NCBI RefSeq assembly: GCF_038871235.1 | Contig: NZ_JAVZIN010000009.1 | Coordinates: forward strand, 1,441-65,440 | DNA length: 64,000 bases | Direction: 5' to 3' | From: Candidatus Hadarchaeum sp. | Lineage (GTDB): Archaea; Hadarchaeota; Hadarchaeia; Hadarchaeales; Hadarchaeaceae | Part shown: in pieces, positions 13,329 through 62,133 of the stretch | Layout: every line of letters starts with the position of its first letter | Numbering within the stretch: the stretch's first letter is position 1 | Position numbers and translations under genes: made by a program | Notes under the pieces: generated by a model | Told to the model about the DNA's origin: nothing | Seen by the model: the letters and a program-made list of their open reading frames with translations, nothing else | Database searches by the model: none

Positions 13329-13867
13329 TATTCAATGCCCTTTCTGGCGGGTATTCCCTCTCTGGCCGGATGTTTGACGTCCTCAATCACCGAGACAAAG
13401 TCGGCCCGGTCGATCAGCGCTCTTGGTGCCCTCCTCCCGGTCAACATGACGACGGTGGACGGCGGCACTTTATCCAGCAGCTTGAGCACATCCTTGACCT
13501 TGATCAGCCCGAAGGCGGCGGCTAGGTTTATCTCATCCAGCACCAGCAGCCTTGGCTTTTTCTTCAGGGCCTTTCTCGCAAATGCCAGCCCCTTTTCCGC
13601 CAGCCGGTAATCCTCAGGGGATGGGTTCTTTGGGTCAACAAATTCCTTGCGCCCGAACTGGTAGATCTCACATTCTGGAGCCAGTCTCCGGCAGGCCTTC
13701 ACCTCCCCGATATCATCCCAGCCCTTCATGAACTGAATGATGATGACCTTGTAGCCATGCCCGATGGCCCTGAGGGCAAACCCGAAGGCGTTGGTGGTCT
13801 TGCCACCGCCTTCACCCGTGTAGAGGTAGATCAAACCCCGCTTCTTTTTAGTAGCTTTCCTCGCCAC
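13325..13867 (-). CDS. cobO: Cob(I)alamin/cob(I)yrinic acid a,c-diamide adenosyltransferase (CobO/BtuR family)
   Basis: 180 aa. It has the P-loop YTGEGGGKTT followed by KVIIIQFMKG, a family hallmark. The gene overlaps the 3' end of the class II RNR gene. Confidence 0.8.
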   Translation of the reverse strand: MARKATKKKRGLIYLYTGEGGGKTTNAFGFALRAIGHGYKVIIIQFMKGWDDIGEVKACRRLAPECEIYQFGRKEFVDPKNPSPEDYRLAEKGLAFARKALKKKPRLLVLDEINLAAAFGLIKVKDVLKLLDKVPPSTVVMLTGRRAPRALIDRADFVSVIEDVKHPAREGIPARKGIEY

Positions 13868-15959
13868 CGGGATGTCCCCCTGAATAATTCAGCTCAGCTT
13901 TAACGAACTTCTCCTCAGGTGGAATCAGCGCCGATTGTGGAGAGATCGAGAGCACCTGCCTCGCCTTGCTCCCGTACCTGTAGACGGTAATTCCCTTGCA
14001 CCTCAACTCGTGGGCTAGGAGGAAGGCCCGCCTCACCTCCTCAGGCGTGGCCTCAGGGGGCAGGTTTATCGTCTTTGAGACTGCGTTGTCCGTGTACTTT
14101 TGAAACACCGCCTGCATCCTCACGTGCCACTCGGGTGAAACATCGAAGGCGGTGACGAAGACCTTTCTGACATCTTCCGGGATCTCCTCAACTCCCTTTA
14201 TCGAGGCCACCCGGGACAGCTTCACCATGAGCTCTCGGCTGTAGAATCCCCTCCTCGTGGCAATCCTCTGGAAGGTCTGGTTGACTTCGATCAGCTGAAT
14301 GCCACTCATGACGTTCCTGATGTAGGCGACGGCGAAGAGGGGCTCGATGCCGCTGGTGGTGCCGGCGATGATGCTGATGGTTCCTGTGGGAGCGATCGTC
14401 GTCACGGTGGCGTTTCTCAGGCATTTGTAGCCGCGCTTCTCCCAGATGCTGCCGGGGAAGGCAGGGAATGAGCCCCTCTGTTCAGCCAGCTCGACGGACA
14501 TCCGGCGCCCCTCCTCAGAGATGAACTTCATCACCTCGTCGGCCTTCTGCAGCGCCTCCTCAGAATTGTAGGGGATGCCCAGCTCGAGTAACATCTCGGC
14601 AAAGCCCATCACCCCTAGGCCGATCTTTCTGGTCAGCTTGGTCGCCCTTTCAATCTCCAGGATGGGATACCTGTTGACGTCAATGACATTGTCCAGAAAA
14701 TGCACGGCGTTTCGAACAGTGCTTCTCAGCTTTTCCCAGTCTATTTTCCCATCCTTTATCATCTTGGAGAGGTTGATTGACCCTAGGACGCAAGACTCGT
14801 AGGGCAAGAGGGGCTGCTCCCCGCAAGGATTGGTGGCTTCGATCTGCCCTAAGTGCGGCGTCGGGTTGTGCCGGTTAATTTCATCCAGAAAGATCAGCCC
14901 CGGGTCTCCAGTTTTCCAAGCCATGTTGACGATCAGGTCAAAGACTTCTCTTGCCCTCAGCCGCCTCTCCGCAATTCCCGTTCTTGGATTGATCAGATCG
15001 TATTCCTCGTCTTTCTTGACAGCATCCATAAAGGCATCTGTTACCCCGACTGAGATGTTGAAGTTGACCAAGGCATTCTCCTTGACCTTCGCCGTGATGA
15101 ACTCGAGGATGTCCGGATGGTCGACCCGCAGTATTCCCATGTTGGCACCCCGGCGTTTTCCACCCTGCTTGATCACATCGGTGGCCACGTCGAAGACCCT
15201 CATGAAGGAAACCGGACCGCTGGCTACCCCCTTGGTCGACCTGACGATGTCGCCAGCGGGCCTCAGCCTAGAGAAGGAGAAGCCGGTGCCGCCGCCCGAT
15301 TGATGGATGAGCGCCATTGTTTTCAGGGAATCAAAAATTCCAGCCATAGAATCCTCAACCGGGATGACAAAGCAGGCAGCCAGTTGCCCCAGTGGCGTTC
15401 CAGCGTTCATTAGGGTTGGGCTGTTGGGGAGAAACTCCAAGTTGACCATCATACGGTAAAACTTCTCCTCGGTTTCAGCCAGAGTGGTTGAACCATAGAG
15501 TCCATCGGCCGAGGCCACTGCCTTCGCCACCCTGCGGAAGAGCTGCGAAGGAGTTTCGGTGATGTTGCCCTGCTCGTCGCGCAACAGATAGCGGCGCTGA
15601 AGGACCCGGATGGCGTTGAGGTTCAGCTTCAGGTCGTCACTCACGCCCAGCAGCGCCTTGGCGGCCCTCAGCTCCGCCCTCTGCTGCCGGTAGAGGATGT
15701 AGGCCCTGGCGACCTCAGCGTAACCGTTCTTGATCAGGACCTCCTCAACGATGTCTTGTATATCCTCAACACCCGGTATCCTGCCGGCGAACTTTCTCTC
15801 CAGGATCTGCGTTACCTGCCCAGTAAGCTGTTTGGCGATTTCTCCATCTCCGGTGCCGGTAGCGTTGAAAGCCTTGAATATGGCGTTGGCAATCTTCTCA
15901 CCCTCAAAGGGAACCACCCGACCGTCCCTCTTCCTGATTTTCTCAATTCCCGCCATCAA
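13848..15959 (-). CDS. nrdJ: Adenosylcobalamin-dependent (class II) ribonucleotide reductase with an N-terminal ATP-cone
   Basis: 703 aa. The ATP-cone is at the N-terminus, KIRKRDGRVVPFEGEKI. The active-site region is NPCGEQPLLPYESCVLGSINL. At this length there is no intein. Confidence 0.9.
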   Translation of the reverse strand: MMAGIEKIRKRDGRVVPFEGEKIANAIFKAFNATGTGDGEIAKQLTGQVTQILERKFAGRIPGVEDIQDIVEEVLIKNGYAEVARAYILYRQQRAELRAAKALLGVSDDLKLNLNAIRVLQRRYLLRDEQGNITETPSQLFRRVAKAVASADGLYGSTTLAETEEKFYRMMVNLEFLPNSPTLMNAGTPLGQLAACFVIPVEDSMAGIFDSLKTMALIHQSGGGTGFSFSRLRPAGDIVRSTKGVASGPVSFMRVFDVATDVIKQGGKRRGANMGILRVDHPDILEFITAKVKENALVNFNISVGVTDAFMDAVKKDEEYDLINPRTGIAERRLRAREVFDLIVNMAWKTGDPGLIFLDEINRHNPTPHLGQIEATNPCGEQPLLPYESCVLGSINLSKMIKDGKIDWEKLRSTVRNAVHFLDNVIDVNRYPILEIERATKLTRKIGLGVMGFAEMLLELGIPYNSEEALQKADEVMKFISEEGRRMSVELAEQRGSFPAFPGSIWEKRGYKCLRNATVTTIAPTGTISIIAGTTSGIEPLFAVAYIRNVMSGIQLIEVNQTFQRIATRRGFYSRELMVKLSRVASIKGVEEIPEDVRKVFVTAFDVSPEWHVRMQAVFQKYTDNAVSKTINLPPEATPEEVRRAFLLAHELRCKGITVYRYGSKARQVLSISPQSALIPPEEKFVKAELNYSGGHPGGEESY

Positions 15960-21453: not shown

Positions 21454-22863
21454 ATGAATGAAATTTCATTGTGCGTGAGCTCTCAGACCCCCTTGGTGAG
21501 GTTCAGCACCGATTACGAGGAAATTCTGAGAAAGCGCGGCCTTAAAGGTGGACCGTTAGATATTTCCAACTTTACCGAAGGCGAGGATTACACCTTCACA
21601 GCCGGTGGAGTGACTAGAATGGTCTTCCCGCTGCTCAGACAGATGGTTGGTCAGGGTCTTCTAAGGGACCCACATTGGATTTCTCTCAATCCAATAGCTC
21701 CAGAAACGCTCACCGTGGGCAAGATAACGCTGAAACACGTGCGAATTGAAAGGGAAAGAATGAGCGGTTATAGTCAAGCGAAAGAAATTATCTGGAAGGC
21801 TCTGCACGGTATCCAGAGGGAACCGGTAAATTCGCTCTTCTGGCAGGAGGAATTTGTTGATTACAACTACTACAACAGGGTCTGCAGTGAACTCATCAAC
21901 AAGCTGGATGAAAAAAATGATTTTGACCTGTTTTACATTCATGATTTTCAACAACTCCCCTTGGCCCAAATGCTTCACACACTGAAGCCGAAGATTTTTA
22001 GATGGCATGTGCCCTTTGATGAGTCTTTGATCCCTGAAGCTTGGAGGCAGTCGCTGGCATCATGGTTTAACGAGTACGATGTGGTGGTTGTTAGCTGCAA
22101 AAGATATCTGGAGTCGCTGAGAAAGTTTGGATACGGTGGAGAGGCACATTATATCTATCCCTATCTTGACCTCAGCGCCTACAGGAAGCCAAGCCCTGAG
22201 GAGGTTGAGAACTTTGATAAAAAGTATGGGATAAATCGGGAGGACAGGGTCTTACTGGTGGTAGCTAGGATGGACCCCATGAAAGGTCAGGACCGTGCGA
22301 TATCAGGATTTGCTGAGGTGGCAAGATGTTATCCTAACTTGAAGCTGGTTTTAGTTGGCGATGGAAGTTTCTCCAGTTCCAAGCAGGGACTCGGGCTTTC
22401 CAAGGCGGAGAAGTGGCTGGCTGAGCTGAGGGAATTGGCCAAGAGCTTGGGTCTGGAGAATAGAGTTATCTTCACCGGCCATTTGACCCATGCTGAGCTT
22501 CAGGCAGCTTATGAGAGATGTGAGCTGACTATTTTGCCATCAGTTCTAGAGGGATTTGGTTTAGTGGTCATCGAGAGCTGGCTCTACAAGAAACCACCGA
22601 TCGTCAGCGCTAATGCAGGAATTTCCGAGCTGATAAAACACGGAGAAAATGGTTTGCTCTTTAATCCAAATGATCCAGCAGATCTCGCAGATAAGCTTTT
22701 TTACTTGCTATCAGACCAGAACCTTTCGCGAATTCTCGGCGAAAATGGTTATAATTCTTCAAGAAAATGTTCTCTTGAGGAAGGGGTAAAAGCAGAGTTT
22801 GAGTTGATGCGAAAATTGGTTGGATTTGAGGAAAATATGGTGCTTGGAAATGAACCTAAATGA
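21454..22863 (+). CDS. GT4-family retaining glycosyltransferase. It is a putative compatible-solute synthase, TreT-like or sugar-phosphate-synthase-like
   Basis: 469 aa with a GT-B fold. It has the N-domain GGVTRMV loop and the C-domain EGFGLVVIESW (E-x7-E) motif. It lies next to an OtsB-like phosphatase and MscS channels. Confidence 0.65.
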   Translation: MNEISLCVSSQTPLVRFSTDYEEILRKRGLKGGPLDISNFTEGEDYTFTAGGVTRMVFPLLRQMVGQGLLRDPHWISLNPIAPETLTVGKITLKHVRIERERMSGYSQAKEIIWKALHGIQREPVNSLFWQEEFVDYNYYNRVCSELINKLDEKNDFDLFYIHDFQQLPLAQMLHTLKPKIFRWHVPFDESLIPEAWRQSLASWFNEYDVVVVSCKRYLESLRKFGYGGEAHYIYPYLDLSAYRKPSPEEVENFDKKYGINREDRVLLVVARMDPMKGQDRAISGFAEVARCYPNLKLVLVGDGSFSSSKQGLGLSKAEKWLAELRELAKSLGLENRVIFTGHLTHAELQAAYERCELTILPSVLEGFGLVVIESWLYKKPPIVSANAGISELIKHGENGLLFNPNDPADLADKLFYLLSDQNLSRILGENGYNSSRKCSLEEGVKAEFELMRKLVGFEENMVLGNEPK

Positions 22864-23593
22864 CCTGATATTGGAGTTAGCTATTTTTGTTGCCATCTTG
22901 CTGGGTACCTTTTTGGCCGCTAAAATTTTCAGCCTAGTGGTCCGTGGCGTGTTTAGAAATTGGGTGCCAGCAGTGAGGTCCCATTTTCAAAGGTTGGTCT
23001 CCATCACCATCTGGGTCATCGGCCTGATCTTCGCCTTCCAGCAGCTGGGTCTTCGGCTGGATTTTCTGCTTTTAATCCTAGGATTGATCGGAATTGGCGT
23101 GCTGATAGCGGTTAAGGACACTCTTATGAATATCGGTGCTAAATATTTTTCTGACGTCTATGTGCCGTTTAAGGTTGGGGACATCATCAAAGTTGCTGGT
23201 AGCACCGGAAAGGTCATTGAAATAAATCCAATAACGACAGTTCTGTTGACAAAAAATGAAGAGCTGGTGTCCATCCCTAATTCACTTTTTCTCAAGGAAA
23301 AAATGAGGAACATCACACCCCACGTCTGGAAGGAGATATTGGTTCCGATAACTATCGGCAGCGGCATCGATTTGCCCCAGTTCGAAAGCGAGGTGCTGAA
23401 GGCATGTAATAAAATCAGAAAATATCTTGATGAACGCTTTCCACCGGTTTTAACGGTTAAGAGCAGGAACCAAAGATCGGTGAGCTTAGTTTTGGCCTTG
23501 ATGGTGAAGGAACCAGATAAGAAGAACGAGATCATCGATGAGATCAACAGGAAAATTTCCGAGATAGAACAGAAAATGGCACGAAAAACATAA
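22850..23593 (+). CDS. Small-conductance mechanosensitive channel (MscS family). The track start at 22820 overlaps the upstream gene, and the Met at 22850 is more likely
   Basis: It has three TM helices and then the MscS beta-domain, KVGDIIKVAGSTGKVIEINPITTVLLTKNEELVSIPNS. Confidence 0.8.
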   Translation: MNLNDLILELAIFVAILLGTFLAAKIFSLVVRGVFRNWVPAVRSHFQRLVSITIWVIGLIFAFQQLGLRLDFLLLILGLIGIGVLIAVKDTLMNIGAKYFSDVYVPFKVGDIIKVAGSTGKVIEINPITTVLLTKNEELVSIPNSLFLKEKMRNITPHVWKEILVPITIGSGIDLPQFESEVLKACNKIRKYLDERFPPVLTVKSRNQRSVSLVLALMVKEPDKKNEIIDEINRKISEIEQKMARKT

Positions 23594-23638
23594 CCTTTGT
23601 CCAAAAAACATCGATTAATATAGCTGGCCGAGTTGGGC

Positions 23639-24679
23639 TCAGCCCTGTGTTTTATCCTTCAAGTATACTGTCCTTATTGGGAAAGGTATCACGATGCCCT
23701 CTTCTCGATATCTTTTGTGAAGGGCCTTGATGAACTCGTGTGTTATCAAGTGTCTATCCGTGTATTCCTTGGCCCGAAGTATCACCGTGAAGTTTATGCT
23801 GAAGTCGCTGAAGGTGTGGTATCGAATAAAAGGTTCGAATTCAGGCACTCCTCCCTTTACGTTTTTCATGATTTCCCTGGCTACCTCGATAGTTACCCTT
23901 TCCACTTTTTCTAGATCGCTGTTATAGCTCACCCCCACCTGAACTAGGACCGACATTTCCGGTGTTGGTTGATAATAATCGACGACAATGGATCCTGCCA
24001 TTTTAGAGTTGGGCACGGTGATAATGTTGTTCGAGAGTTCCCTGATCTTGGTGCTTCTCCAGCCGATGTCGACCACGTAGCCCTCTTGACCGGTTTCAAG
24101 CTTGACGTAATCTCCGGCCCTGAAGGGTTTATCCGTCATCAGGTACATCCCGGAGAAAAATTGTGACAGGGTTTCTTGGAGAGCAAAGGCGATTGCTATG
24201 CCGCCAATGCCCAAGCCAGCAACAAGGGCGGTAACGTCTATGCCCAGCCCGTTAAGGATGAGGATGAAGGCGATAAAGTATACCACGGCGGCCGCTGTTT
24301 TTGACAGAATTGGAACCAAGCTTTTCAAGTTGGGTCGGGTTACCCCATAATGCTTCATTATCCCGGTTATTACTCTAACAGCCGCAATTGTCGCGATTAG
24401 TACTATGAGCACGTAGCTGATGATCGGAAGATACTGCTCGATCGTTTCTCGATAAAATGGAACCCGAGTTGAGGCGAACCTTATCCCGACAATCAGAAAT
24501 ATCAGGACGATGGGCGTTTTGATGGCGCCGAGGATAATATCATCCAACTCAGTCTTTGTTCTCCGCGCCAACCTAGCAATATAGAAGCTGAGAATGATTC
24601 TCAAGACATATCCGCAGGCGAACACGCCCACTAAAATCAGGAGGGGTTCCAGAATCTGCCAGATTTCTTCCAAGGCCAT
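23639..24679 (-). CDS. Small-conductance mechanosensitive channel (MscS family), second copy
   Basis: 346 aa. It has several TM helices followed by RAGDYVKLETGQEGYVVDIGWRSTKIRELSNNIITVPNS, the MscS signature. Confidence 0.85.
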   Translation of the reverse strand: MALEEIWQILEPLLILVGVFACGYVLRIILSFYIARLARRTKTELDDIILGAIKTPIVLIFLIVGIRFASTRVPFYRETIEQYLPIISYVLIVLIATIAAVRVITGIMKHYGVTRPNLKSLVPILSKTAAAVVYFIAFILILNGLGIDVTALVAGLGIGGIAIAFALQETLSQFFSGMYLMTDKPFRAGDYVKLETGQEGYVVDIGWRSTKIRELSNNIITVPNSKMAGSIVVDYYQPTPEMSVLVQVGVSYNSDLEKVERVTIEVAREIMKNVKGGVPEFEPFIRYHTFSDFSINFTVILRAKEYTDRHLITHEFIKALHKRYREEGIVIPFPIRTVYLKDKTQG

Positions 24680-24740
24680 CGAGGCACCTTTTTCACCGAT
24701 GCAAAATAAATTATAGTTTGCAAGATATAATCTTAATGGC

Positions 24741-25553
24741 GTGCTGTTCGATATGAGACATCTATGGAATATTTTGGACTCTTTGAAGAAAAATTCTGAC
24801 TTGTTTTGGTTTCTGGACTACGATGGTGTCTTAACTCCGATTGTTTCGGAGCCGGAAAAGGCGATCCTAGATCTGGAGATGAGAAAGTTTTTGGAAGCCT
24901 TGGCTGAGAAATTCAAAGTCGTGGTTATAAGCGGCAGAAGGCTTCAGGAGTTAAAGAAACTGGTCTCGGTTGGAAAGATATGTTACGCAGGCAATCATGG
25001 CCTTGAGATAAGCGGGCTGGGGGTAAGTTTAGTTTTGCCCAGGGCCAAACGTGTTCGCCCCGTAGTTTTAAAAATGTGTCGGGAACTTCAGAAAAGGCTG
25101 CAAGGCACAGCCGGCGTGATCGTCGAAAACAAGGGATTAACGGCTAGCCTCCATTACCGTAATGTGGCACCAAAGGAGTTTGCCAAGGTTAAGAAAATTT
25201 TTGAAAGCGTCGTCCATTCCTATGTTAAATCCGGTTCGTTCAGGATAACCAAGGGTAAAAAGGTCTGGGAAATAAGGCCTAATCTCGATTGGAATAAGGG
25301 GATGGCGGTTGATTGGATAATTAAAAATTTTGATCCAGAAGGGAAACTTTTACCCATCTATCTCGGTGATGATAAGACCGATGAGGATGCATTCCGGACG
25401 CTCAGGGGAAGGGGAATAACCGTTATGGTGGGGAAATGTTGTCAGAGGTCAAATGCTGAATTTTATTTGCGGGGAGTCCAAGAGGTTAAAATTCTTTTGA
25501 GAAATTTCGCCCGCGGCAACTCGAAATTTGCGTCGGTTTTCACGCGTTTGTAG
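24741..25553 (+). CDS. otsB: HAD-IIB sugar-phosphate phosphatase, trehalose-6-phosphate phosphatase-like (OtsB family)
   Basis: 270 aa. It has HAD motif I FLDYDGVLTP, motif II ISGR, and a motif III/IV region GDDKTDEDAF. The layout resembles OtsB. Confidence 0.7.
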   Translation: MLFDMRHLWNILDSLKKNSDLFWFLDYDGVLTPIVSEPEKAILDLEMRKFLEALAEKFKVVVISGRRLQELKKLVSVGKICYAGNHGLEISGLGVSLVLPRAKRVRPVVLKMCRELQKRLQGTAGVIVENKGLTASLHYRNVAPKEFAKVKKIFESVVHSYVKSGSFRITKGKKVWEIRPNLDWNKGMAVDWIIKNFDPEGKLLPIYLGDDKTDEDAFRTLRGRGITVMVGKCCQRSNAEFYLRGVQEVKILLRNFARGNSKFASVFTRL

Positions 25554-35195: not shown

Positions 35196-36584
35196 CTAGT
35201 ACCGGTACTCTACACCAAGGTCGCGCAGTTCGTTTTTGATCTTTCGATAAAGGTCCAAATATTCCTGAGTCGGCTTCTTCCTTTCCACGTCGTAGCATTC
35301 CCTAAAGGTTTTTCCCAGCGGTGCGTCCTTTATCCGGTGCTCGTATTTTTTCAAAAGTTCTTTGACGATCTCGTTGGCGTCTTCCCTCTTCATTCTACTT
35401 TCAACTGCGGAGAGTCCGGACTCACAGGCGAACCTCGCTTCCATCGGCGTGGTTCTTTCCTTGTGCTTGTTAGAAGCGGTGGCAATTTCCCAGAGGATGC
35501 TGGTACCAGACACGGCGCTGGTTATTCCGTGAGCGGCAGCCTCATATAGGACCATGTCGGTGCATGGGCCCGCGACGGCAAACCCGTTGGACCCTGAGAT
35601 GAACTTTGAGTTTCTGGCGATCGCCTGATAGGTGCCGCTCACCACCCAGAGCATCTCCCTCATCGTGTTGCAGAAGTAAATCTTGTCGATGGGGAAATAG
35701 CAGGTGAAATATCCTTGGTTGACCATCAGCCCTTGGATGTGGGAGGCAACACCGATTATTGCCGTCCCCTCGGCGCCGGCGTATGCGCCCAGCATCGGGC
35801 TTGTCAGCGTTCCGCAGAGGTGACCGTTCTGGTGGAAGTGTAGCATCTTGGTCAGCAGGTCGTTGTCAATTTTGAGCTCGCTTATTATCGAGACCAACCT
35901 GATATCGGTTTTTCTGGCTCCCCACTCTTGTTCGCTGGTGGCGATCTGGGCAGCCGCTTGCAGTGCTGTTCCGGTGAGAACTATGGCTATCCCGGGTCTA
36001 CCGGCCCTCTTGGCGGCCTCTCTCGCCAGCATCGCGTGGACCATTCCTCCCTGGGTTTCGGAGGGTGCCCCAGTTTTCAATGGCATTCCCTCAATCTCCT
36101 CCAAAATGGGTGATGATACTGCGTCTGCCAGCGGTTCCTTGATGTAGGCCATTTCAATCGGGATGAACAAGTCCTCAGAGCATCTAACGCCAACCGGTGT
36201 GAAAAGGCATCCCGGTGGCTTTGTGTCCTCCACTTTTCTCGGCGACCATTTCCTTGAGTCCTGTCCTTCACCCACGGTAATTTCGTTTCTCATGCTGAAC
36301 ATGGCTTCCTTAATTTCCTCCTCGCTGAAAAGTATTCTGCGGTAGGTGCTGGTACAGTAGGTTCCGACGGAGAGGTAGAAATCCCAAGCGGCTTTCCAGA
36401 GGTCGTCGGCCAGGGAGTCGTCGGAGAAGACGATCTGCTCCGGATCGAACCTGATGTCGTACTCCTTGATCACCCGCTTCAGGTTGGGGAAGAGGATCTT
36501 GGTGTCGAATTCCTTCTCGGTGCAGATGGGACCGGTCTCGGCGCGCTCCAGGACCTCGTTGATCCGCCACGGTGGCGCCGGCAT
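35196..36584 (-). CDS. MtmB-family (monomethylamine methyltransferase-like) corrinoid-dependent methyltransferase with no pyrrolysine/UAG codon
   Basis: 462 aa, uninterrupted. It is collinear with Methanosarcina MtmB from RAETGPICTEKEFD through to the C-terminal KTFRECYDVERKKPTQEY. The AGRPG region carries V/L where MtmB has the UAG-encoded Pyl. It follows directly after the corrinoid protein gene in the same operon. Confidence 0.8.
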   Translation of the reverse strand: MPAPPWRINEVLERAETGPICTEKEFDTKILFPNLKRVIKEYDIRFDPEQIVFSDDSLADDLWKAAWDFYLSVGTYCTSTYRRILFSEEEIKEAMFSMRNEITVGEGQDSRKWSPRKVEDTKPPGCLFTPVGVRCSEDLFIPIEMAYIKEPLADAVSSPILEEIEGMPLKTGAPSETQGGMVHAMLAREAAKRAGRPGIAIVLTGTALQAAAQIATSEQEWGARKTDIRLVSIISELKIDNDLLTKMLHFHQNGHLCGTLTSPMLGAYAGAEGTAIIGVASHIQGLMVNQGYFTCYFPIDKIYFCNTMREMLWVVSGTYQAIARNSKFISGSNGFAVAGPCTDMVLYEAAAHGITSAVSGTSILWEIATASNKHKERTTPMEARFACESGLSAVESRMKREDANEIVKELLKKYEHRIKDAPLGKTFRECYDVERKKPTQEYLDLYRKIKNELRDLGVEYRY

Positions 36585-37235
36585 CTATCTCCTCTCCGCG
36601 ACCAGCTTCTTGGCCAGCTCGACGGCCTCGGCGGCGTTCTCGGTCCAGCCGTCGGCCCTCGTCCTGCGGAACCAATCCTCGTCCACCGAGCCGCCCCCGA
36701 TCATGACGATGAAGTTCTTGCGGTGGCCCATGCCCTCGAGCAGGTCGATGACCTCCTTCTGGGCGCCCCGAGTGGTGGACATCAGGGCCGAGAGGGCGAT
36801 GATGTCGGCCTTGACCTCGTTGGCCTTCTGGATGATGGCCATCGAGTCAACATCGCGCCCCAGGTCGTGGACCTCGAAGTTGTTGACCTCGAGCAGCAGG
36901 GCCAGGATCGTCTTGCCGATGTCGTGGATGTCGCCCTTGACGGTGGCGATGACCACCTTGCCCAGTCGCTTGCTCTCGATCTCCTCCCGGGCTTTGGAGC
37001 TTGACTTGGCCAGCAGGATGTCGACCGCGGCCTTCATCGCCTCGCTGGCCAGCAGCACCTCGGGCAGGAAGTACTCTCCCTTCTCGAACTTGTCCCCGAC
37101 GATCTTGGCCGCCGGGGCGATGCCCTCGTTCACGGCCCTGATGGGGTCAACTCCGGCCTTGACCATCTCCTCAGCAATCCTCTTGGCAGAATCAACGTCA
37201 TATTCGATTATGCTCCGCTTCAAATCCTCTATCAT
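36585..37235 (-). CDS. Cobalamin-binding corrinoid protein (MtmC/MtaC-like). The track start at 37307 is probably a spurious extension
   Basis: It has an N-terminal corrinoid-protein cap helix domain and the B12-binding DxHxxG motif, GDIHDIGK. Its stop abuts the MtmB-like start. Confidence 0.85.
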   Translation of the reverse strand: MIEDLKRSIIEYDVDSAKRIAEEMVKAGVDPIRAVNEGIAPAAKIVGDKFEKGEYFLPEVLLASEAMKAAVDILLAKSSSKAREEIESKRLGKVVIATVKGDIHDIGKTILALLLEVNNFEVHDLGRDVDSMAIIQKANEVKADIIALSALMSTTRGAQKEVIDLLEGMGHRKNFIVMIGGGSVDEDWFRRTRADGWTENAAEAVELAKKLVAERR

Positions 37236-37405
37236 TAAATTACCGATTTTTCTTGTTGAGAATTGTATAAGTATTTTGTGGTAGACTTGGCTTTTTAGAA
37301 TGGTCATCGATTTATTAAGTTTGAGGAAATTAGATCTAGTACAAATTTTTCGATTTTCATCAGTGAAGACTTAAATAATTAAATCAAAATAACTAAACTG
37401 ATAGA

Positions 37406-38278
37406 ATGGTCTCCCTCGAGATGCTAATTGGAACTGCAGTAATTGGTTTGCTGGTGGGTTGTATCTACGCGTTAGGTGGTCTGGGATTAGCTTTCATTTA
37501 TGGAATATTGGATTTTGTAAACTTCGGACACGGCGACTTTCCCCTGATGCTCTCCATGTATGTAACCTTTTGGCTCTTTGTAATTTTTGGATTGGACCCG
37601 ATTTTTTCACCAATTTTGGCCGTCCCCTTGTTTTTCCTTTTAGGGATATTGGTTTACAAGAGCATAGCTAGACGCACCCTCAAAGGCCCAGCACTTTCCC
37701 AAATCGCGGCAACGATAGGTCTGATGATAATGGTCCGTGGTCTGGCACAGGTGGCTTGGTCCTCTGACCCGAGAAGTATACCCTTCACAATTGTCCGCGG
37801 GTCAATAGAGATCGGTGGGCTGTTACTACCTCAGTCACGCATAGTCGGTGCTCTGATAAGCATCGGTGCTTTTATCTTGATTCATTATTTCTTGAATAGG
37901 ACATATACTGGTCTCTGTATTCGGGCTATAACCGATGATCGGGTGGCAACGGAAGTGTTGGGCATCAACACCGAGCGGCTCTACATGTTGTCGTTCGGAA
38001 TCGGGATAGGCCTGACCTCGATAGCCGGAGCAGTAATGATGACTTATTCCTTTGTCGATCCAACCATTGGCCTTAGATATGGTTTGTTGCTTTTTGTTAT
38101 CTTGTGTCTGGCCGGGCTGGGTACAATCAAAGGGGTGATTTTTGCCGGTTGTATTCTAGGAGTTATCGAGGCGCTCACCACAGTTATCTGGGAATCCCGA
38201 GCCGCCATGCTAGTGGTTTTCATTATTTTCATCTTGATGCTTTGGTTGCGGCCTAAGGGACTCTGGGGGAGGAGATAG
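37406..38278 (+). CDS. livH: Branched-chain amino acid-type ABC transporter permease (LivH family)
   Basis: 290 aa, polytopic, with LivH-like topology. It is the first gene of a four-gene operon. Confidence 0.8.
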   Translation: MVSLEMLIGTAVIGLLVGCIYALGGLGLAFIYGILDFVNFGHGDFPLMLSMYVTFWLFVIFGLDPIFSPILAVPLFFLLGILVYKSIARRTLKGPALSQIAATIGLMIMVRGLAQVAWSSDPRSIPFTIVRGSIEIGGLLLPQSRIVGALISIGAFILIHYFLNRTYTGLCIRAITDDRVATEVLGINTERLYMLSFGIGIGLTSIAGAVMMTYSFVDPTIGLRYGLLLFVILCLAGLGTIKGVIFAGCILGVIEALTTVIWESRAAMLVVFIIFILMLWLRPKGLWGRR

Positions 38279-38279
38279 C

Positions 38280-39263
38280 TTGAATAAAAAGTTTATCTCC
38301 GAAAAAATCCTTTTAACAGCAATACTGTTTTTATTCATAGCCCTAATCCCTGCTTTCTTTGGCTTCAATGAGTACTATACTTTCACTTTCAGCGTCATTC
38401 TGGTCTACGCCTGTGCCAGCTCAGCATGGAATATAATCGGTGGTATGGCCGGCCAGTTCGACTTAGCGGCAGCATCCTATGTTGGGCTCGGGATGTTCAC
38501 CTCAGGAACTCTCTACACGAGATTTGGAATACCCTTTTGGATGGGGATGCCCCTCGGTGGCGTGGTGGCCATGGGCTTTGCCCTGCTACTTGGTTATCCA
38601 ACCTTCAGGTTCAAACTGAGGGAATTCTGGTATGCACTTTCTTCGATTGCCAGTGTGCCGATTTTGAGAATTTTGTTTCTCGTATGGGAGGACGTGGGTG
38701 GTCCTATCGAAAGATGGCTAGGCAAGCCGAATCCCATCCTCATGCGTTTTGACTCATTCTTGCCATATTTTTACATTTTGGTCGGTGCGCTGGCAGTTAT
38801 CATATATGTCAACTACAGGATAAAGAACTCAAAGACGGGTTATTATCTGTTTGCCATAGGGGCTGATGAAGAAGCAGCAGCTTCGCTGGGAATTGATGTT
38901 CGGAGATATAAGCTTAAAGCTCTCATGATTTACGCTTTCATTCTCGGCATGCTGGGAGCCATTTACGTGAACTTACTCGGCAACTATCATCCAGATCATT
39001 TCGATACCTTTTTCACCATCACAATTGCCTCGATAGGAATCATCGGCGGGCTCGGTGTGATCTACGGAGCACCAATCGTGGCTTTCATCTTGGTGGGCAT
39101 AAGTGAGGTCGCGAGATTCACCGTCGGTACCATGGGAGGCCTGCCTTGGGTGATTTATGGACTGGCCATGCTGGTCATTGTCTTGTTCCGACCGCAAGGG
39201 GTAGGTCCCATGTTCAAGGAAGCTTATATTCGGGCCAAAGGACTGTTCAAAAGGAGGGGCTAA
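38280..39263 (+). CDS. livM: Branched-chain amino acid-type ABC transporter permease (LivM family)
   Basis: 327 aa, polytopic. It sits 2 nt after livH. Confidence 0.8.
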   Translation: MNKKFISEKILLTAILFLFIALIPAFFGFNEYYTFTFSVILVYACASSAWNIIGGMAGQFDLAAASYVGLGMFTSGTLYTRFGIPFWMGMPLGGVVAMGFALLLGYPTFRFKLREFWYALSSIASVPILRILFLVWEDVGGPIERWLGKPNPILMRFDSFLPYFYILVGALAVIIYVNYRIKNSKTGYYLFAIGADEEAAASLGIDVRRYKLKALMIYAFILGMLGAIYVNLLGNYHPDHFDTFFTITIASIGIIGGLGVIYGAPIVAFILVGISEVARFTVGTMGGLPWVIYGLAMLVIVLFRPQGVGPMFKEAYIRAKGLFKRRG

Positions 39264-39266
39264 AAA

Positions 39267-39995
39267 GTGTCAACTGCCTTGCTCGAAACGGTTAATCTGA
39301 CAAAAAGATTTGGGGGATTGGTTGCGGTCAATAAGGTGAACCTCAAAATCACCCCGGGTGAAACACTCGGAATAATCGGTCCCAATGGAGCGGGCAAGAC
39401 AACTTTATTTAACCTGATTGCCGGGTTGCTGTCCCCTGATGAAGGCAAAGTATATTTCAAGGGTAAAGATATCACAAACCTGCTGCCTCACAAGAGAAAT
39501 GAAATCGGTATAGCTAGGACATTTCAAATTCCGAGACCTTTTGCCAACATGACGGTCTGGGATTCGGTCAAGGTAGGTGCCTATCGCCTCACCAACGACC
39601 AGAAAGAACTGGAGAGAAAGGTCGGTGAAATTCTTGAATTTTTCGACTTAACTCGACTCGCTCAGCAGAGTTGTTCTTCTTTAAACGTTTCCCAGTTGAA
39701 GTTGGTTGAACTAGCAAGGGCAGTAGCCACCGGACCTGAACTTTTGCTGATCGATGAGGTCGGTGCTGGTTTAACACCAAGTGAGCTGGATGATCTTGGT
39801 GCCATGATTCAAAAGCTAAAAAGAAAAATGAAGATCACCATTTGTTTGGTCGAGCATGTGATGAGGATAATCTGGCAGCTTTGTCCTAGGATAGTGGTTA
39901 TGGATTTCGGTAGCATTATTTCAACAGGGACGCCGAAAAGTGTCGCGAGAGATCCTAAGGTGATTGAGGCCTATTTGGGTAGAGGGTTGATCTGA
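39267..39995 (+). CDS. livG: ABC transporter ATP-binding protein (LivG family)
   Basis: It has the Walker A GPNGAGKTT, the signature sequence, and the Walker B LLLIDE. Confidence 0.85.
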   Translation: MSTALLETVNLTKRFGGLVAVNKVNLKITPGETLGIIGPNGAGKTTLFNLIAGLLSPDEGKVYFKGKDITNLLPHKRNEIGIARTFQIPRPFANMTVWDSVKVGAYRLTNDQKELERKVGEILEFFDLTRLAQQSCSSLNVSQLKLVELARAVATGPELLLIDEVGAGLTPSELDDLGAMIQKLKRKMKITICLVEHVMRIIWQLCPRIVVMDFGSIISTGTPKSVARDPKVIEAYLGRGLI

Positions 39996-40705
39996 TGAAA
40001 GTTTTGCTTTCGGTGAAAAACATTAACGTTTCTTATGGCAAAATTCCGGTTCTTTATGACGTTTCGCTTCAGGTTGGAGAGAAAGAGGTGGTAACTGTCG
40101 TGGGACCGAACGGGGCCGGTAAAACGACGCTGCTGAGAGCGATATCCGGATTGGTGCCGATATCATCCGGATCAATAACTTTTAAAGGAATGGAAATTAG
40201 CAGGCTTCGCCCTCACGAAATATCAAAGTTGGGCATCTCGCACGTGTTGGAGGGCAAGAGGATCTTTCCCAATCTTACCGTGAAGGAAAATCTTTATTTA
40301 GGGGCCTTTAAAGCCCGGGAGAGGATTGAAGAAGGGCTAAAGCTGGTCTATGATCTTTTTCCTCGCCTGAAGGAAAGGGAAAACCAGAGGGCCGGGACGC
40401 TGAGTGGGGGCGAGCGACAGATGTTGGTGGTGGGACAGGGACTTATGTCGAATCCTTCCCTTCTCATGCTGGATGAACCCTCGTTGGGAATAGCCCCTAA
40501 GCTGATCGAGGAAATATTTGAAGTTCTTAAAATGCTGAAGAAACAGGGCGTCACGATACTCTTGGTGGAACAATTCGTTGCTCAGGCGTTAGCTCTTGCA
40601 GATAGAGGCTATGTTTTAGAAAATGGGAGAATCTGTCTCAGCGGCTCGGGAAAGGGATTGTGTAAGAATAGACACGTTAAAACCGTTTATTTGGGTGGCA
40701 AATAG
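39995..40705 (+). CDS. livF: ABC transporter ATP-binding protein (LivF family)
   Basis: It has the Walker A GPNGAGKTT, the LSGGERQ signature, and the Walker B LLMLDEPS. Its start overlaps the livG stop. Confidence 0.85.
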   Translation: MKVLLSVKNINVSYGKIPVLYDVSLQVGEKEVVTVVGPNGAGKTTLLRAISGLVPISSGSITFKGMEISRLRPHEISKLGISHVLEGKRIFPNLTVKENLYLGAFKARERIEEGLKLVYDLFPRLKERENQRAGTLSGGERQMLVVGQGLMSNPSLLMLDEPSLGIAPKLIEEIFEVLKMLKKQGVTILLVEQFVAQALALADRGYVLENGRICLSGSGKGLCKNRHVKTVYLGGK

Positions 40706-40707
40706 CT

Positions 40708-40725
40708 CAATTTTTTAATTAAGAA
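40708..40725. terminator. Oligo-T tract between the convergent livF and livK genes (archaeal-type terminator candidate)
   Basis: A T6 run lies a few nt after the livF stop. The opposite strand also carries T/A runs downstream of livK. Confidence 0.3.
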
Positions 40726-40850
40726 AATTTTAAGACGCATTCGTCGTGCGTTCTAGCTGGTTCCAATTTTCAGGCACCAAAAGAGATTTGAAATCTGGGT
40801 CTACCTGTTTTAGCGAAAAAAGAAAAAATAAAAAGTTTGCTATTGCGTGT

Positions 40851-42182
40851 TTACGAGTAGTCAGGCCTTGGAATAATCATATCCCCGTCGGCCACGTCGA
40901 AGGGCCACACCGTCACGGATTTTCCGTTTTGTACCTGCATCACATGAATACCTGGATATTTTGTTTCGCCTCTTTCGTCGAAGGCTATCTTTGTGCCCGG
41001 ATAGGTTTCAATTGCTGGTCCGGAAGTTACTTCAATTGTTCTCAGAATTTCCGCGAGATGATTGACGTTCAGCGGGTCCTGTGGGTATCTCTTGCCTGCC
41101 AACTCCAGAGCTTCTTTTATCACCCAGATAGAGAAGTAAGCCTCACCAGCGGCATCGGCTGGATCCTCTCCGGTGAGCGCTCTGAAGTCAGCGAGGAACT
41201 TCTTGTTCCAAGTGGTGTCTTTTCTCGGGTTGTACACATAGGAGTTGGTGAAGTACTCAACGGCTTCTCCACCTTCCCTTATTGAAGCTGAGTCAACCCA
41301 GCCACAGGCTCCTCCACCTGCCCAGATCTTGGCCGGTGATCCCAGCTCATGGACCGCTCTGGCGAACAACATGGCGTCGTTGAAGTATGGGCAGTGGAAC
41401 ACAGCGTCCGGCTTTATCGACTGAAGCTCCGTCATGATTGAGCTAACGTCAGTGATCAAGTAGTAGTATTCCTTCTCATAAACAACACTGACTCCCCTTC
41501 TCATCAGCTCCTCTAGCATTCCAATGCGTACGTATCTCCCGAACACGGAGTCCTCGTTAAGCACGGCTGCGGTCGAAATTTCTACTCCTTTTTTCCCTGC
41601 CCAGTCCAGCACTCCCGCTACAGCTCCTCTGCCAAAGTAGGAAGCAGGTGAGGTCGCCCTGAACACCGTCGTGAATCCCTGCTCCATAATGTAGTCAGAC
41701 AGACCGTCTATCATCACTATTGCTTTTCCATCCAACACCTCACACATGGCCAAGGTTTGCTTGCTGATATAGGCGCCGAAGACAATAGGAACTTTATGAA
41801 CCCCAGCCATTCTTTCGGCGGCCGACTTGGTTTTGTCAACACTTTCGCCGGCGTCCTCTTCCACGAGTTCTATCTTAGCACCACCGAGCGATTGGATGCC
41901 GCCTGAGTCATTGATGTGTTGAACAGCTATTCTAACTCCATTAGCGGCTTCGATACCAAAGACCGAAGCCCAGCCAGACATTGGTTCGACGAGACCAATC
42001 TTGACCTTTTCAATTTTTGGTGTCGTTGGCGTAGGTGTGGTGGGTGTCGTAGTTGGTGTAGGTGTGGTCGTTGGAGTGGTGGGCGTCGTGGTCGTCGGTG
42101 GCGGCATGGAAATAACGTACGCTGAGGCAATTGCAATGGCTACTATCACTACCGCGACAATTGCTATATACTCCTTTTTCAT
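40851..42182 (-). CDS. livK: ABC transporter substrate-binding protein (LivJ/LivK PBP1 family) with an N-terminal TM anchor and a Thr/Pro linker
   Basis: 443 aa. The N-terminal TM helix is followed by PPPTTTTPTTPTTTPTPTTTPTTPTPTTPK and then a type-I periplasmic binding fold. Confidence 0.8.
   Translation of the reverse strand: MKKEYIAIVAVVIVAIAIASAYVISMPPPTTTTPTTPTTTPTPTTTPTTPTPTTPKIEKVKIGLVEPMSGWASVFGIEAANGVRIAVQHINDSGGIQSLGGAKIELVEEDAGESVDKTKSAAERMAGVHKVPIVFGAYISKQTLAMCEVLDGKAIVMIDGLSDYIMEQGFTTVFRATSPASYFGRGAVAGVLDWAGKKGVEISTAAVLNEDSVFGRYVRIGMLEELMRRGVSVVYEKEYYYLITDVSSIMTELQSIKPDAVFHCPYFNDAMLFARAVHELGSPAKIWAGGGACGWVDSASIREGGEAVEYFTNSYVYNPRKDTTWNKKFLADFRALTGEDPADAAGEAYFSIWVIKEALELAGKRYPQDPLNVNHLAEILRTIEVTSGPAIETYPGTKIAFDERGETKYPGIHVMQVQNGKSVTVWPFDVADGDMIIPRPDYS
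42015..42104. repeat. Low-complexity imperfect tandem repeat encoding the Thr/Pro linker of the LivK-like binding protein
   Basis: Units of the ggtgt(c/g)gt(t/g)gg type repeat across the span. Confidence 0.6.
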
Positions 42183-59361: not shown

Positions 59362-60393
59362 ATGAGAAAGCCGGCGAGATTTGGTGAGTCACTACTTGGC
59401 GATAAGGTTCGGTGTCGTCTTTGCCCCCGCCTATGTGTAATTCCCATGGGTGAAACCGGTTTCTGTCGCACTCGGTTGAACGATCGCGGCCAGCTTTATA
59501 CCCTCATCTATGGCTCGGTGACATCGATGGCGATTGACCCTGTGGAAAAGAAACCCCTTTATCATTTTCTGCCCGGCAGCGACTCCTTTTCAATAGGCAC
59601 GGCCGGTTGTAATCTCGCCTGCCGCCACTGTCAAAATTGGACGATCTCGCAGGCGAACATAGAGGAAGTAGATCATGAGAATATGTTACCCGAGAGGGTG
59701 GTGGAGCTGGCCCAGAAGTATCGTTGTCCGAGCATTTCCTACACCTATTCGGAACCATCGATCTGGTTTGAGTTTGTTTACGACACCGCTAAAATTGCCC
59801 ACGCGGCAGGGATTTACAACATCTACGTCACTAATGGCTACATGAGCCTAGAGGCCTGGGAGGAGATCAAACCTTATCTCGCCGCGGCCAATGTTGATGT
59901 GAAAGCCTTTTCCGATGATTTCTATCGAAGAGTCTGTTCCGCTCCGGGACTCGAGCCGGTTTTGAGGACCTGCGAGTGGATGGTGGAAAATGGGATTCAC
60001 CTTGAGACCACCTACTTGATTATCCCCGGTGAAAACGACAATTCTGAGGAGATCCGCAAATTTTGCCGGTGGGAGGTGGAGAAGCTGGGTCCCGATGTCC
60101 CGACTCACTTCAGCCGCTTTTTCCCCATGTATAAAATGAGCGACCGGGAGCCGACCCCGGTAAGGACGCTTGAGCTGGCTCTGAAGATAGCCAAGGAGGA
60201 AGGACTGCACTACGTTTACATCGGCAATGTGGCCGGCCACAAGGGCGATAACACCTACTGTCCCAACTGCGGGAAGCTCCTCATTGAAAGGTTTGGCTTT
60301 GACATCCTCCGTTACGAGATCAAGGATCATAAATGCCCCAAATGCGGCACCGAAATCAAAATTTTTGGGGAGTACAGCCCAGCCTCAAGATAG
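59362..60393 (+). CDS. AmmeMemoRadiSam-system radical SAM enzyme (PFL-activase-like)
   Basis: 343 aa. It has CNLACRHCQN (CxxxCxxC) and a C-terminal CPNCG...CPKCG zinc ribbon. Confidence 0.8.
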   Translation: MRKPARFGESLLGDKVRCRLCPRLCVIPMGETGFCRTRLNDRGQLYTLIYGSVTSMAIDPVEKKPLYHFLPGSDSFSIGTAGCNLACRHCQNWTISQANIEEVDHENMLPERVVELAQKYRCPSISYTYSEPSIWFEFVYDTAKIAHAAGIYNIYVTNGYMSLEAWEEIKPYLAAANVDVKAFSDDFYRRVCSAPGLEPVLRTCEWMVENGIHLETTYLIIPGENDNSEEIRKFCRWEVEKLGPDVPTHFSRFFPMYKMSDREPTPVRTLELALKIAKEEGLHYVYIGNVAGHKGDNTYCPNCGKLLIERFGFDILRYEIKDHKCPKCGTEIKIFGEYSPASR

Positions 60394-61770: not shown

Positions 61771-62133
61771 TTAAATCGTGACGTGATAGTTTACTCGGGC
61801 CCGTGGCCTAGCTAGGATAAGGCGGCAAGTTGAAAAACCCGCAGGCCTTCTATCCCGGCGAGGAGAGCTGCATATCGTGGGTTCAAATCCCACCGGGCCC
61901 GCCTCTTCAACCCTTTCTTGGGAAGAAAGCGTTGACGGAAAGAAATTATTTTCGCCGTTTTTGTCAAAGTCCGCCCCATTTTCCATTCCCAGGGCTTTCC
62001 TGAGTTGATATTCCAGAAAGCGGCTCAGGTTTATGCCTCTTTCCCTGGCGGCTTTGACGATCTCGGGGTCAAGGGTCAGGCAGGTGATTTTCCGTTTGCG
62101 TTTGCGTGCATATACACATACATATTCAGGCAT
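61771..62133 (-). CDS. Putative small ribbon-helix-helix (CopG-like) protein. The 3' third of the ORF runs antisense across the tRNA gene, so the C-terminus is doubtful
   Basis: From an internal Met, the stretch KITCLTLDPEIVKAARERGINLSRFLEYQLRKAL is RHH-like. The upstream extension and the portion overlapping the tRNA are probably not genuine. Confidence 0.3.
   Translation of the reverse strand: MPEYVCVYARKRKRKITCLTLDPEIVKAARERGINLSRFLEYQLRKALGMENGADFDKNGENNFFPSTLSSQERVEEAGPVGFEPTICSSPRRDRRPAGFSTCRLILARPRARVNYHVTI
61797..61901 (+). tRNA. tRNA gene with about 30 extra nucleotides, a putative intron. The isotype is unresolved
   Basis: The acceptor stem is GGGCCCG/CGGGCCC. T8 and G9 are present. 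The D-stem is GCCT/AGGC with a D-loop AGCTAGGATA. The T-arm is GTGGG-TTCAAAT-CCCAC, and the discriminator is G. Between D-arm and T-arm there are 53 nt where about 23 are expected. Confidence 0.7.

Follow-up and report, generated by a model that had tools for sequence, protein, structure and literature searches.

What does a methyltransferase of the MtmB family do in an archaeon whose genes use TAG as an ordinary stop codon, and why does its gene lie beside an importer of the amino-acid type? This question is raised by a locus of the hot-spring archaeon Candidatus Hadarchaeum sp. (Hadarchaeota) at positions 35,196 to 42,182 of a 64,000-nucleotide stretch of contig NZ_JAVZIN010000009.1 (assembly GCF_038871235.1), the whole of which was analysed and is called here the window. 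The locus holds the genes of a predicted substrate:corrinoid methyltransferase (hereafter MT1) and of a corrinoid protein, arranged divergently to those of a Liv-type ABC importer. MT1 is already present in NCBI (MEM3598326.1 / WP_342812366.1) under the name monomethylamine:corrinoid methyltransferase, which probably misstates the substrate for the clade to which MT1 belongs. We propose, with moderate confidence, that the region encodes the initial steps of a demethylation pathway that depends on a corrinoid and is coupled to uptake of its substrate. The novel element would be a well-supported subclade of the MtmB family that has an active-site signature of its own and, judging from the gene neighbourhoods of relatives, a recurrent and dedicated binding-protein-dependent importer.

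By profile and by predicted fold, MT1 belongs to the MtmB family. Against the Pfam model PF05369 (MtmB) it gave an E-value of 3.2e-106 and 356.3 bits (cut-off 25) over profile positions 3-449 of 450, and MtmB1 of Methanosarcina barkeri (PDB 1L2Q/1NTH) aligned to its residues 12-458 with E 2e-69 and 31% identity; none of the NCBIfam models matched MT1 at E <= 1e-5. When the AlphaFold2 model of MT1 (pLDDT 92.3) was searched with Foldseek, the MtmB structures 1TV2, 1NTH and 1L2Q were recovered with E 4e-42, a TM score of 0.94 and a root-mean-square deviation of 1.6 A, and the next-best entries, MttB and MtgB, reached a TM score of only ~0.5. MT1 is thus predicted to have an MtmB-type TIM-barrel fold that can be superposed on the crystal structures, and the full-length membership that an earlier reading of this DNA without database searches (the sequence-only reading) had claimed is upheld by both approaches.

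MtmB in the strict sense carries a UAG-encoded pyrrolysine (Pyl) at position 202. In the alignment with 1L2Q, this column (X202) falls on Val202 of MT1, within the segment AGRPGIAIVLTGT, AGRPGIAIV(202)LTGT, in which the AGRPG motif just ahead of the catalytic position is common to MT1 and MtmB of M. barkeri. The sequence-only reading had placed either V or L at this site and had seen no in-frame amber codon; the alignment with 1L2Q settles on valine, with the codon GTT, and the sole in-frame TAG of the gene is its own stop. MT1 is therefore a protein without Pyl, and TAG is an ordinary stop in the window, where it terminates 17 of the 49 open reading frames (ORFs), those of MT1 and the corrinoid protein included. 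No pyl genes (pylTSBCD) were found within the 64 kb. An ARAGORN scan of the window reported no tRNA, and the single tRNA that Rfam recovered has an anticodon loop that reads by eye as UUGAAAA (GAA, Phe) and not CUA, which rules out tRNA-Pyl. Likewise, the radical-SAM gene (59362-60393) was discarded as a candidate PylB because it belongs to the AmmeMemoRadiSam type. The replacements around the Pyl column extend further, since the columns of MtmB1 E205, E229 and E259 hold G, L and L in MT1. These three glutamates, which we take to have a part in MtmB, are used here as an alignment observation only, a literature search having given nothing relevant. Next to the second of them, MtmB1 H228 aligns to R229 of MT1, and arginine stands in this column in 124 of 138 clade sequences, being near-invariant. 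Loci of relatives are cited below by L numbers and homologous proteins by P numbers. One of these loci offered a possible Pyl site, a split subclade-B MtmB-like gene of a Bathyarchaeota metagenome-assembled genome (MAG) (L016:1656-3041), and it was rejected: the in-frame stop is TAA, at a position where relatives all have Tyr (GGY -> GG*), and is a sequencing error or the mark of a pseudogene.

The gene directly upstream of MT1 encodes a corrinoid protein with B12-binding_2 and B12-binding domains (Pfam), whose DIHDIG motif occupies residues 102-107 and whose closest solved relatives are MttC (7XCN_M, E 2e-40) and MtmC (3EZX, E 5e-32). It scored 175 bits against the MtgC model and 191.6 bits against TIGR02370, for which the cut-off is 215.3, and by these scores appears to be a relative of the TIGR02370 subfamily that stands outside it. 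The TAG stop of the corrinoid gene runs straight into the ATG of MT1 with zero spacer (AGA TAG ATG), which suggests that the two are translationally coupled and that the corrinoid protein is cognate to MT1. A longer ORF starting at 37307 was rejected, as homologues begin at the ATG at 37235, the one in L002 having 216 aa, and sequence upstream of this ATG no longer aligns; with the start set there, the region separating the two divergent gene sets is exactly 170 bp, the length given by the sequence-only reading, which had also recognised the adjoining B12-binding protein. TATA-like A/T boxes were seen by eye ~25-35 nt upstream of each divergent start codon, and we infer that the region is a putative promoter region from which both sides may be co-regulated. 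The pair is not peculiar to this locus. Most of 33 GTDB loci have a corrinoid gene as the immediate upstream neighbour of the MtmB-like gene, and the core pair is conserved in Hadarchaeota, Bathyarchaeia, Asgard archaea, Chloroflexota and others.

Table 1. Features of the methyltransferase and importer locus, with the tRNA of the window (positions are those of the window)
Feature	Positions	Strand	Details
Pyl-free MtmB-family substrate:corrinoid methyltransferase (MT1), predicted	35196..36584	-	462 aa; V202 codon GTT at 35979-35981
Cognate corrinoid protein	36585..37235	-	216 aa; DxHxxG (DIHDIG) at 36915-36932
AT-rich divergent intergenic region	37236..37405		170 bp, 26% GC
LivH/UrtB-like ABC permease (HAAT)	37406..38278	+	PF02653 E 2e-32
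LivM-like ABC permease	38280..39263	+	PF02653 E 3e-34
LivG-like ATPase	39267..39995	+	ABC_tran + BCA_ABC_TP_C; LivG model 196 bits, below cut-off
LivF-like ATPase	39995..40705	+	ABC_tran; LivF model 267 bits, below cut-off
Membrane-anchored substrate-binding protein (Peripla_BP_6, cluster-B/HAAT)	40851..42182	-	PF13458 E 3e-46
Intron-containing tRNA	61797..61901	+	105 nt; Rfam, 43.5 bits; missed by ARAGORN

A mosaic was observed when the corrinoid/MT1 genes were compared with those of another Ca. Hadarchaeum MAG (L002, GCA_038885535.1). Between window positions 36400-37190 and L002:190-990, DNA identity is 93-100% through the corrinoid gene and on into the MtmB-like gene for its first ~185 nt; past this point it drops to ~60-70% in the remainder of the MtmB-like gene, and the upstream region is unalignable. 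At the protein level the corrinoid proteins are 97.7% and the MT1 proteins 74.9% identical. The pattern resembles the outcome of a recent recombination or gene conversion event involving two divergent corrinoid/MT1 loci, which are linked to different HAAT transporters.

On the other side of the intergenic region, the four livHMGF-like genes follow one another closely, 1 and 3 bases apart at the first two junctions and overlapping by one base at livG/livF, and the binding-protein gene is convergent with livF at a stop-to-stop distance of 145 bp. The complete LivHMGF permease/ATPase set and the convergent, membrane-anchored LivK-like binding protein described by the sequence-only reading are thus both present. 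In terms of Pfam families, two PF02653 permeases, two ATPases (one with BCA_ABC_TP_C) and a Peripla_BP_6 binding protein make up a HAAT importer, and the binding protein has a hydrophobic N-terminal anchor followed by a Thr/Pro-rich linker, the part beyond which spans about residues 55-443. At the equivalog level every component remained below the cut-offs for LivJHMGF (branched-chain amino acids) and UrtABCDE (urea): the best NCBIfam model for the LivH-like permease was UrtB, with 134 bits (cut-off 250), followed by LivH with 74 bits (cut-off 379), and the binding protein scored 60 bits against the Liv-type model (cut-off 477) and 54 against UrtA (cut-off 493).

Where MT1 stands within its family is central to the question of its substrate. 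With a limit of E <= 1e-3 the MtmB family comprises 1070 clusters (50% identity), and with one of E <= 1e-30 it comprises 227; among the 150 clusters listed, the majority are uninterrupted proteins of 450-470 aa. As uninterrupted homologues are presumably non-Pyl, Pyl-free members would form the bulk of the family and Pyl-free status would be common in it. The closest relatives of MT1, with 52-95% identity among the 120 listed, come from Hadarchaeota, Bathyarchaeia and Asgard archaea (Hodarchaeales, Heimdall-, Thor- and Odinarchaeota among those listed), together with one Eubacterium cellulosolvens entry; a scan of GTDB genomes added homologues from Chloroflexota and Thermoleophilia at 47-51% identity. 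In a neighbour-joining tree of 94 sequences with 100 bootstraps, MT1 groups with P0001-P0017 in a clade of 18 sequences with a bootstrap value of 100, which we call subclade A. The Pyl-site segment of subclade A reads GRPG-x-x-x-[V/T/C/I/L]-[L/G]-TGTAL, and that of subclade B, which is larger and mainly from Asgard archaea and Bathyarchaeia, reads GRPGIFL[K/Q][S/G]VGTA[E/Q]. Both subclades have G in the column of MtmB1 E205, L or F in that of E229 and L in that of E259, and in both the arginine at R229 is nearly invariant.

A second, distant MtmB-like paralogue was often observed beside subclade A or B genes, sometimes with a corrinoid protein of its own. It occurs in L011, L012, L014, L015, L017, L041 (10548-11927), L044 (11459-12838) and L045 (16782-18155); the copy of L041 is ~40% identical to MT1, and the Pyl-site motif is G-x-H-N in the six loci inspected (L011, L012, L014, L015, L017 and L041). 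Such pairs hint at sequential demethylation or at paired specificities.

The association of MT1 with a transporter was then evaluated across relatives. All-against-all clustering of the neighbours in 33 GTDB species-representative loci found no conserved neighbour besides the corrinoid protein, and the transporter signal emerged only once the MtmB-like family had been split into subclades. Of 13 subclade-A loci, 9 (the window, L002, L008, L036, L037, L041, L045, L046 and L048) have Liv/HAAT genes next to the MT1 gene. Permeases of the HAAT type lay within 3 kb in seven of the first ten subclade-A loci, whereas 27 loci from other clades had none (Fisher p 1.2e-5, a value that covers this earlier count and not the later 9/13). 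L002, L008 and L046 are from Hadarchaeota and relatives. L037 has the same divergent layout as the window, its Peripla_BP_6 binding protein included, and L041 has divergent permeases; in L045 a full binding-protein and LivHMGF set lies directly downstream of the MT1 gene, and in L048 the binding-protein gene lies directly upstream. The binding-protein gene is divergent in some loci and downstream or directly upstream in others, and these differing gene orders suggest that the linkage was selected repeatedly and not simply inherited as synteny.

The components themselves are in part orthologous. The binding protein of L045 is 41% identical to that of the window, with 43% for LivH, 44% for LivM, 43% for LivG and 53% for LivF, and the binding protein of L048 is likewise 41% identical. 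Taken by gene, orthologues of the LivH-like permease stand beside subclade-A genes in L041 and L045 (43% identity), the LivM-like permease is 42-48% identical to permeases of L036, L041 and L045, and the LivF-like ATPase is 52-53% identical to its counterparts in L036, L037 and L045; the transporter orthologues of L041 and L036 fall at 42-52% overall. The binding-protein family of the window is present in three lineages at 41-44% identity. Comparative genomics thus strengthens the functional link between MT1 and the Liv-type importer that the sequence-only reading had proposed, through its recurrence in subclade A and through orthologues in independent lineages. In another Ca. Hadarchaeum MAG, a Peripla_BP_6 gene (L004:1700-2959, -) lies convergently after a subclade-B MtmB-like gene, and the link with a binding protein may in Hadarchaeota extend beyond subclade A. 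Enzymes of amino-acid metabolism were also found in the neighbourhoods: class I/II aminotransferases in L002, L008 (two), L045 and L046, and outside subclade A in L010 and L026; D-2-hydroxyacid dehydrogenases in L008, L037 and L046; and M20/M28 peptidases in L047.

Taken together, these observations allow a pathway to be sketched. Uptake of a small methylated substrate would fall to the membrane-anchored binding protein and the LivHMGF-like transporter; rather than monomethylamine, this substrate is most likely an N-methyl (onium) compound that resembles an amino acid. MT1, through its Pyl-free TIM barrel, would present it to the co-translated corrinoid protein, whose Co(I) centre would accept the methyl group to give methyl-Co(III); an MT2 methyltransferase (URO-D/MtaA-like or MtrH-like), encoded outside the window, would then transfer this group further, and the cobalt would be kept reduced by a reductive activase of the RamA/RACo type, also encoded outside the window. 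The demethylated product would probably enter amino-acid catabolism via transamination and 2-oxo/2-hydroxy-acid steps. The two outer components have candidates in relatives, where genes of RamA/RACo and of URO-D or MtrH stand beside subclade-A genes in L041, L043, L044, L047 and L048; because activase and MT2 candidates adjoin its genes in this way, the subclade-A enzyme clearly operates within classical three-component systems.

Several lines of evidence lead us to favour an amino-acid-like N-methyl compound: the absence from MT1 of Pyl and of the acidic residues beside it, a near-invariant arginine, the amino-acid/amide type of the importer, the aminotransferase, 2-hydroxyacid-dehydrogenase and M20-peptidase neighbours in relatives, and the reports that Hadarchaeota are mostly sugar and amino-acid heterotrophs (PMC10811742). 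The amino-acid-like or amide-like substrate class suggested by the sequence-only reading is in this light a reasonable but unproven lead. More specifically, and only tentatively since we regard it as rather unlikely in this precise form, the Pyl-free enzymes of subclade A may remove the methyl group of an imported substrate that is either an N-methyl amino acid, and hence a secondary amine, or an amino-acid betaine. If true, ordinary residues such as the near-invariant Arg229 would keep a carboxylate-bearing substrate in position, the amino acid released would supply transamination and fermentation in Hadarchaeota and Bathyarchaeia, which are not methanogens, and the MtmB superfamily would gain a new substrate class and a new physiological role.

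A number of findings weigh against the proposed coupling of uptake and demethylation, or against the substrate suggested for it. As the sequence-only reading had noted for MtaA/MtbA and RamA, a Pfam scan of the 49 ORFs of the 64-kb window found no URO-D (MtaA/MtbA), MtrH or RACo/RamA protein, and MT1 and its corrinoid protein thus stand within the window without the MT2 and RamA/RACo genes of a three-component set. The methyl branch of the Wood-Ljungdahl pathway is restricted to another Hadarchaeota family (PMC10811742), which leaves the methyl acceptor in Ca. Hadarchaeum unclear. All characterised non-Pyl enzymes of the MttB and MtmB families take quaternary amines (PMC13044021), so that the use of a secondary amine would be new chemistry. 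As for the importer, the best solved relative of the binding protein is the L-pyroglutamate-binding protein SAR11_0655 (8WCH, E 5e-27), at a low identity of ~25-28%. The LivJ-type and UrtA-type scores are similar and all far below their cut-offs, and the sequence does not separate amino-acid, amide/urea or other ligands. Four of the 13 subclade-A loci (L039, L043, L044 and L047) have no visible transporter. Finally, the adjacent transporters are of at least three divergent HAAT types, those of L002, L008, L046 and L037 being more divergent from the window (permease identity of 29-31% in L037 and lower in the other three).

The alternative that survives best, although we still consider it unlikely, is that MT1 is an MtqB-like methyltransferase of quaternary amines (choline, tetramethylammonium or a simple betaine) and that the Liv-type transporter is unrelated or carries that amine. 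A permanently charged nitrogen needs no Pyl-type activation, which speaks for such a substrate; against it, the importers known to carry choline and betaine belong to the OpuA/ProU or BCCT types and not to HAAT. The precedent is MtqB of Methanococcoides methylutens Q3c (locus tag ACT9XH_RS04775), a non-Pyl MtmB homologue that demethylates tetramethylammonium and choline and has slight monomethylamine activity (PMC13044021, 2026). MtqB represents the first function shown for non-Pyl MtmB proteins, which had been known for years, and it makes outdated the claim of the sequence-only reading that no such protein had an assigned substrate; other non-Pyl MtmBs, those of Asgard archaea included, are labelled as of unknown function, and methylamine methyltransferases are regarded as requiring Pyl (PMC13044021). 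The characterised non-Pyl relatives in the MttB family point in the same direction as MtqB.

The proximity of MT1 to MtqB was therefore assessed. The MtqB clade was represented by P0462 of M. methylutens, reached from the Methanohalobium homologue P0368 and presumed to stand for MtqB; MT1 is 28-31% identical to P0462, P0459, P0368 and other non-Pyl members from Methanosarcinaceae, no closer than to Pyl-containing MtmB1 (31%), and these presumed members are 55-90% identical to one another. They have Met in the Pyl column, GQCP, GCCTDMM and a retained QEV, where MT1 has V202, LTSPM and GPCTDMV, and the sulfur-rich signature is thus absent from MT1. The ligand-site residues reported for MtqB (Met, Cys and aromatics; PMC13044021) are not those of MT1 either, the placement of the paper's 'positions 4 and 5' being inferred. 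In addition, a tertiary amine is a less fitting product for loci with aminotransferase and 2-hydroxyacid-dehydrogenase neighbours than a primary amine or an amino acid. From these identities MT1 would be neither an MtqB orthologue nor a strict MtmB, and it appears to belong to an uncharacterised deep clade. Among the proteins considered as MtqB relatives, the 50%-cluster representatives closest to Pyl-MtmB1 (P0259, P0280 and P0223) were set aside as members of a mostly Methanomassiliicoccales-associated clade and not of Methanococcoides, and chloromethane CdmB and the mlp cluster were dropped as irrelevant comparisons from other families (UroD).

It is slightly less probable again that the adjacency has no function, MT1 and the corrinoid protein using a diffusible or intracellular methyl donor beside an ordinary amino-acid importer. 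As amino-acid heterotrophs, Hadarchaeota should have several Liv-type systems, and both the divergence of the adjacent transporters and the four subclade-A loci without one agree with chance, as does the lack of such a transporter in all Asgard, Bathyarchaeia and bacterial loci of other clades. Against this reading stand the 9 of 13 subclade-A loci with adjacent transporter genes, set beside 0 of 27 other loci with HAAT permeases (p ~1e-5 on 7/10), the differing gene orders, which argue for repeated selection, and the recurrence of one binding-protein family in three lineages. An S- or O-methyl substrate in place of an N-methyl one, such as a sulfonium or thioether amino acid (S-methylmethionine, methionine) or an O-methyl compound, is improbable: an amino-acid-like compound would suit the Liv-type importer and the aminotransferase neighbours, and sulfonium compounds are good methyl donors, but nothing in the sequence specifically favours such a substrate and we know of no MtmB-family member that uses S- or O-methyl donors. 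Least probable is a true monomethylamine methyltransferase working without Pyl, since the database name, the nearly identical predicted fold and the small residual activity of MtqB are outweighed by the valine at the Pyl position, the loss of the three glutamates, the need for Pyl ascribed to methylamine methyltransferases and the fact that methylammonium is not normally taken up by a Liv-type binding-protein importer.

Some other genes of the window were also noted. An adenosylcobalamin-dependent (class II) ribonucleotide reductase gene adjoins a gene for a CobA/BtuR ATP:corrinoid adenosyltransferase (13325-15959, -), which suggests that the organism depends on corrinoids beyond the methyltransferase. 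At 5679-7967 (+), ~27 kb from the methyltransferase locus, a 762-aa sensor is encoded with an N-terminal MEDS domain, three PAS domains and a C-terminal DUF835; MEDS is a sensory domain of methanogens, methylotrophs and DcmR. Genes for a trehalose synthase-like GT4 glycosyltransferase and a trehalose-phosphatase flank two genes of MscS-type mechanosensitive channels (21454-25553), in what looks like a small osmoadaptation cluster. The ordinary archaeal housekeeping genes of the window include those of IleRS, HMG-CoA reductase, RPA, RadA, RFC, CDC48, PAN, TFE, GatAB, NurA/HerA and a topoisomerase.

The substrate of MT1 matters beyond this locus. Homologues of MtmB without Pyl occur widely, in Hadarchaeota, Bathyarchaeia and Asgard archaea as well as in several bacterial phyla, with MtqB as the only one of known substrate, and genome surveys routinely call such genes 'monomethylamine methyltransferase' and infer from them the use of methylamine, which is very likely wrong for the clade of MT1. 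Since subclade A pairs with a dedicated binding protein that can be screened for ligands, the question of the substrate is directly testable: a soluble form of the binding protein would be an inexpensive experimental entry, and ligands matched in this way can then be offered to MT1 and the corrinoid protein. Assignment of the substrate would correct the annotation of many subsurface and hot-spring archaea and reveal methylated compounds that these archaea take from their surroundings.

Compared with known systems, the pair of the window resembles MtmB of M. barkeri in sharing the same Pfam family over the full length, a TIM barrel (predicted for MT1) and an adjacent cognate corrinoid protein. 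It differs from MtmB, at 31% identity, in having Val for the UAG-encoded Pyl202 and G, L and L for E205, E229 and E259, and further in its host, a non-methanogenic archaeon in which TAG is a normal stop, in the absence of an MtbA or RamA gene nearby and in the linked ABC importer. MtqB and MtqC, a non-Pyl MtmB homologue of ~459 aa with a neighbouring corrinoid protein of 216 aa, are like the pair of the window in composition; with P0462 as presumed representative of MtqB, MT1 falls in a different deep clade, has other Pyl-site residues, and comes from a non-methanogen with a Liv-type importer. The glycine betaine enzyme MtgB and the enzymes MtcB, MtpB and MtyB offer the same arrangement of a Pyl-free paralogue with a corrinoid protein and a changed substrate, although the MttB superfamily is a different protein family of distant structure (Foldseek TM ~0.5 to MtgB and MttB). 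The uncharacterised non-Pyl homologues of Asgard archaea, Bathyarchaeia and Chloroflexota (subclade B and others) share with MT1 the corrinoid-MT1 pair and the near-invariant R229 and L260, with 52-61% identity for subclade-B members among the listed homologues, and differ from it in the Pyl-site segment and in having no Liv/HAAT permeases nearby.

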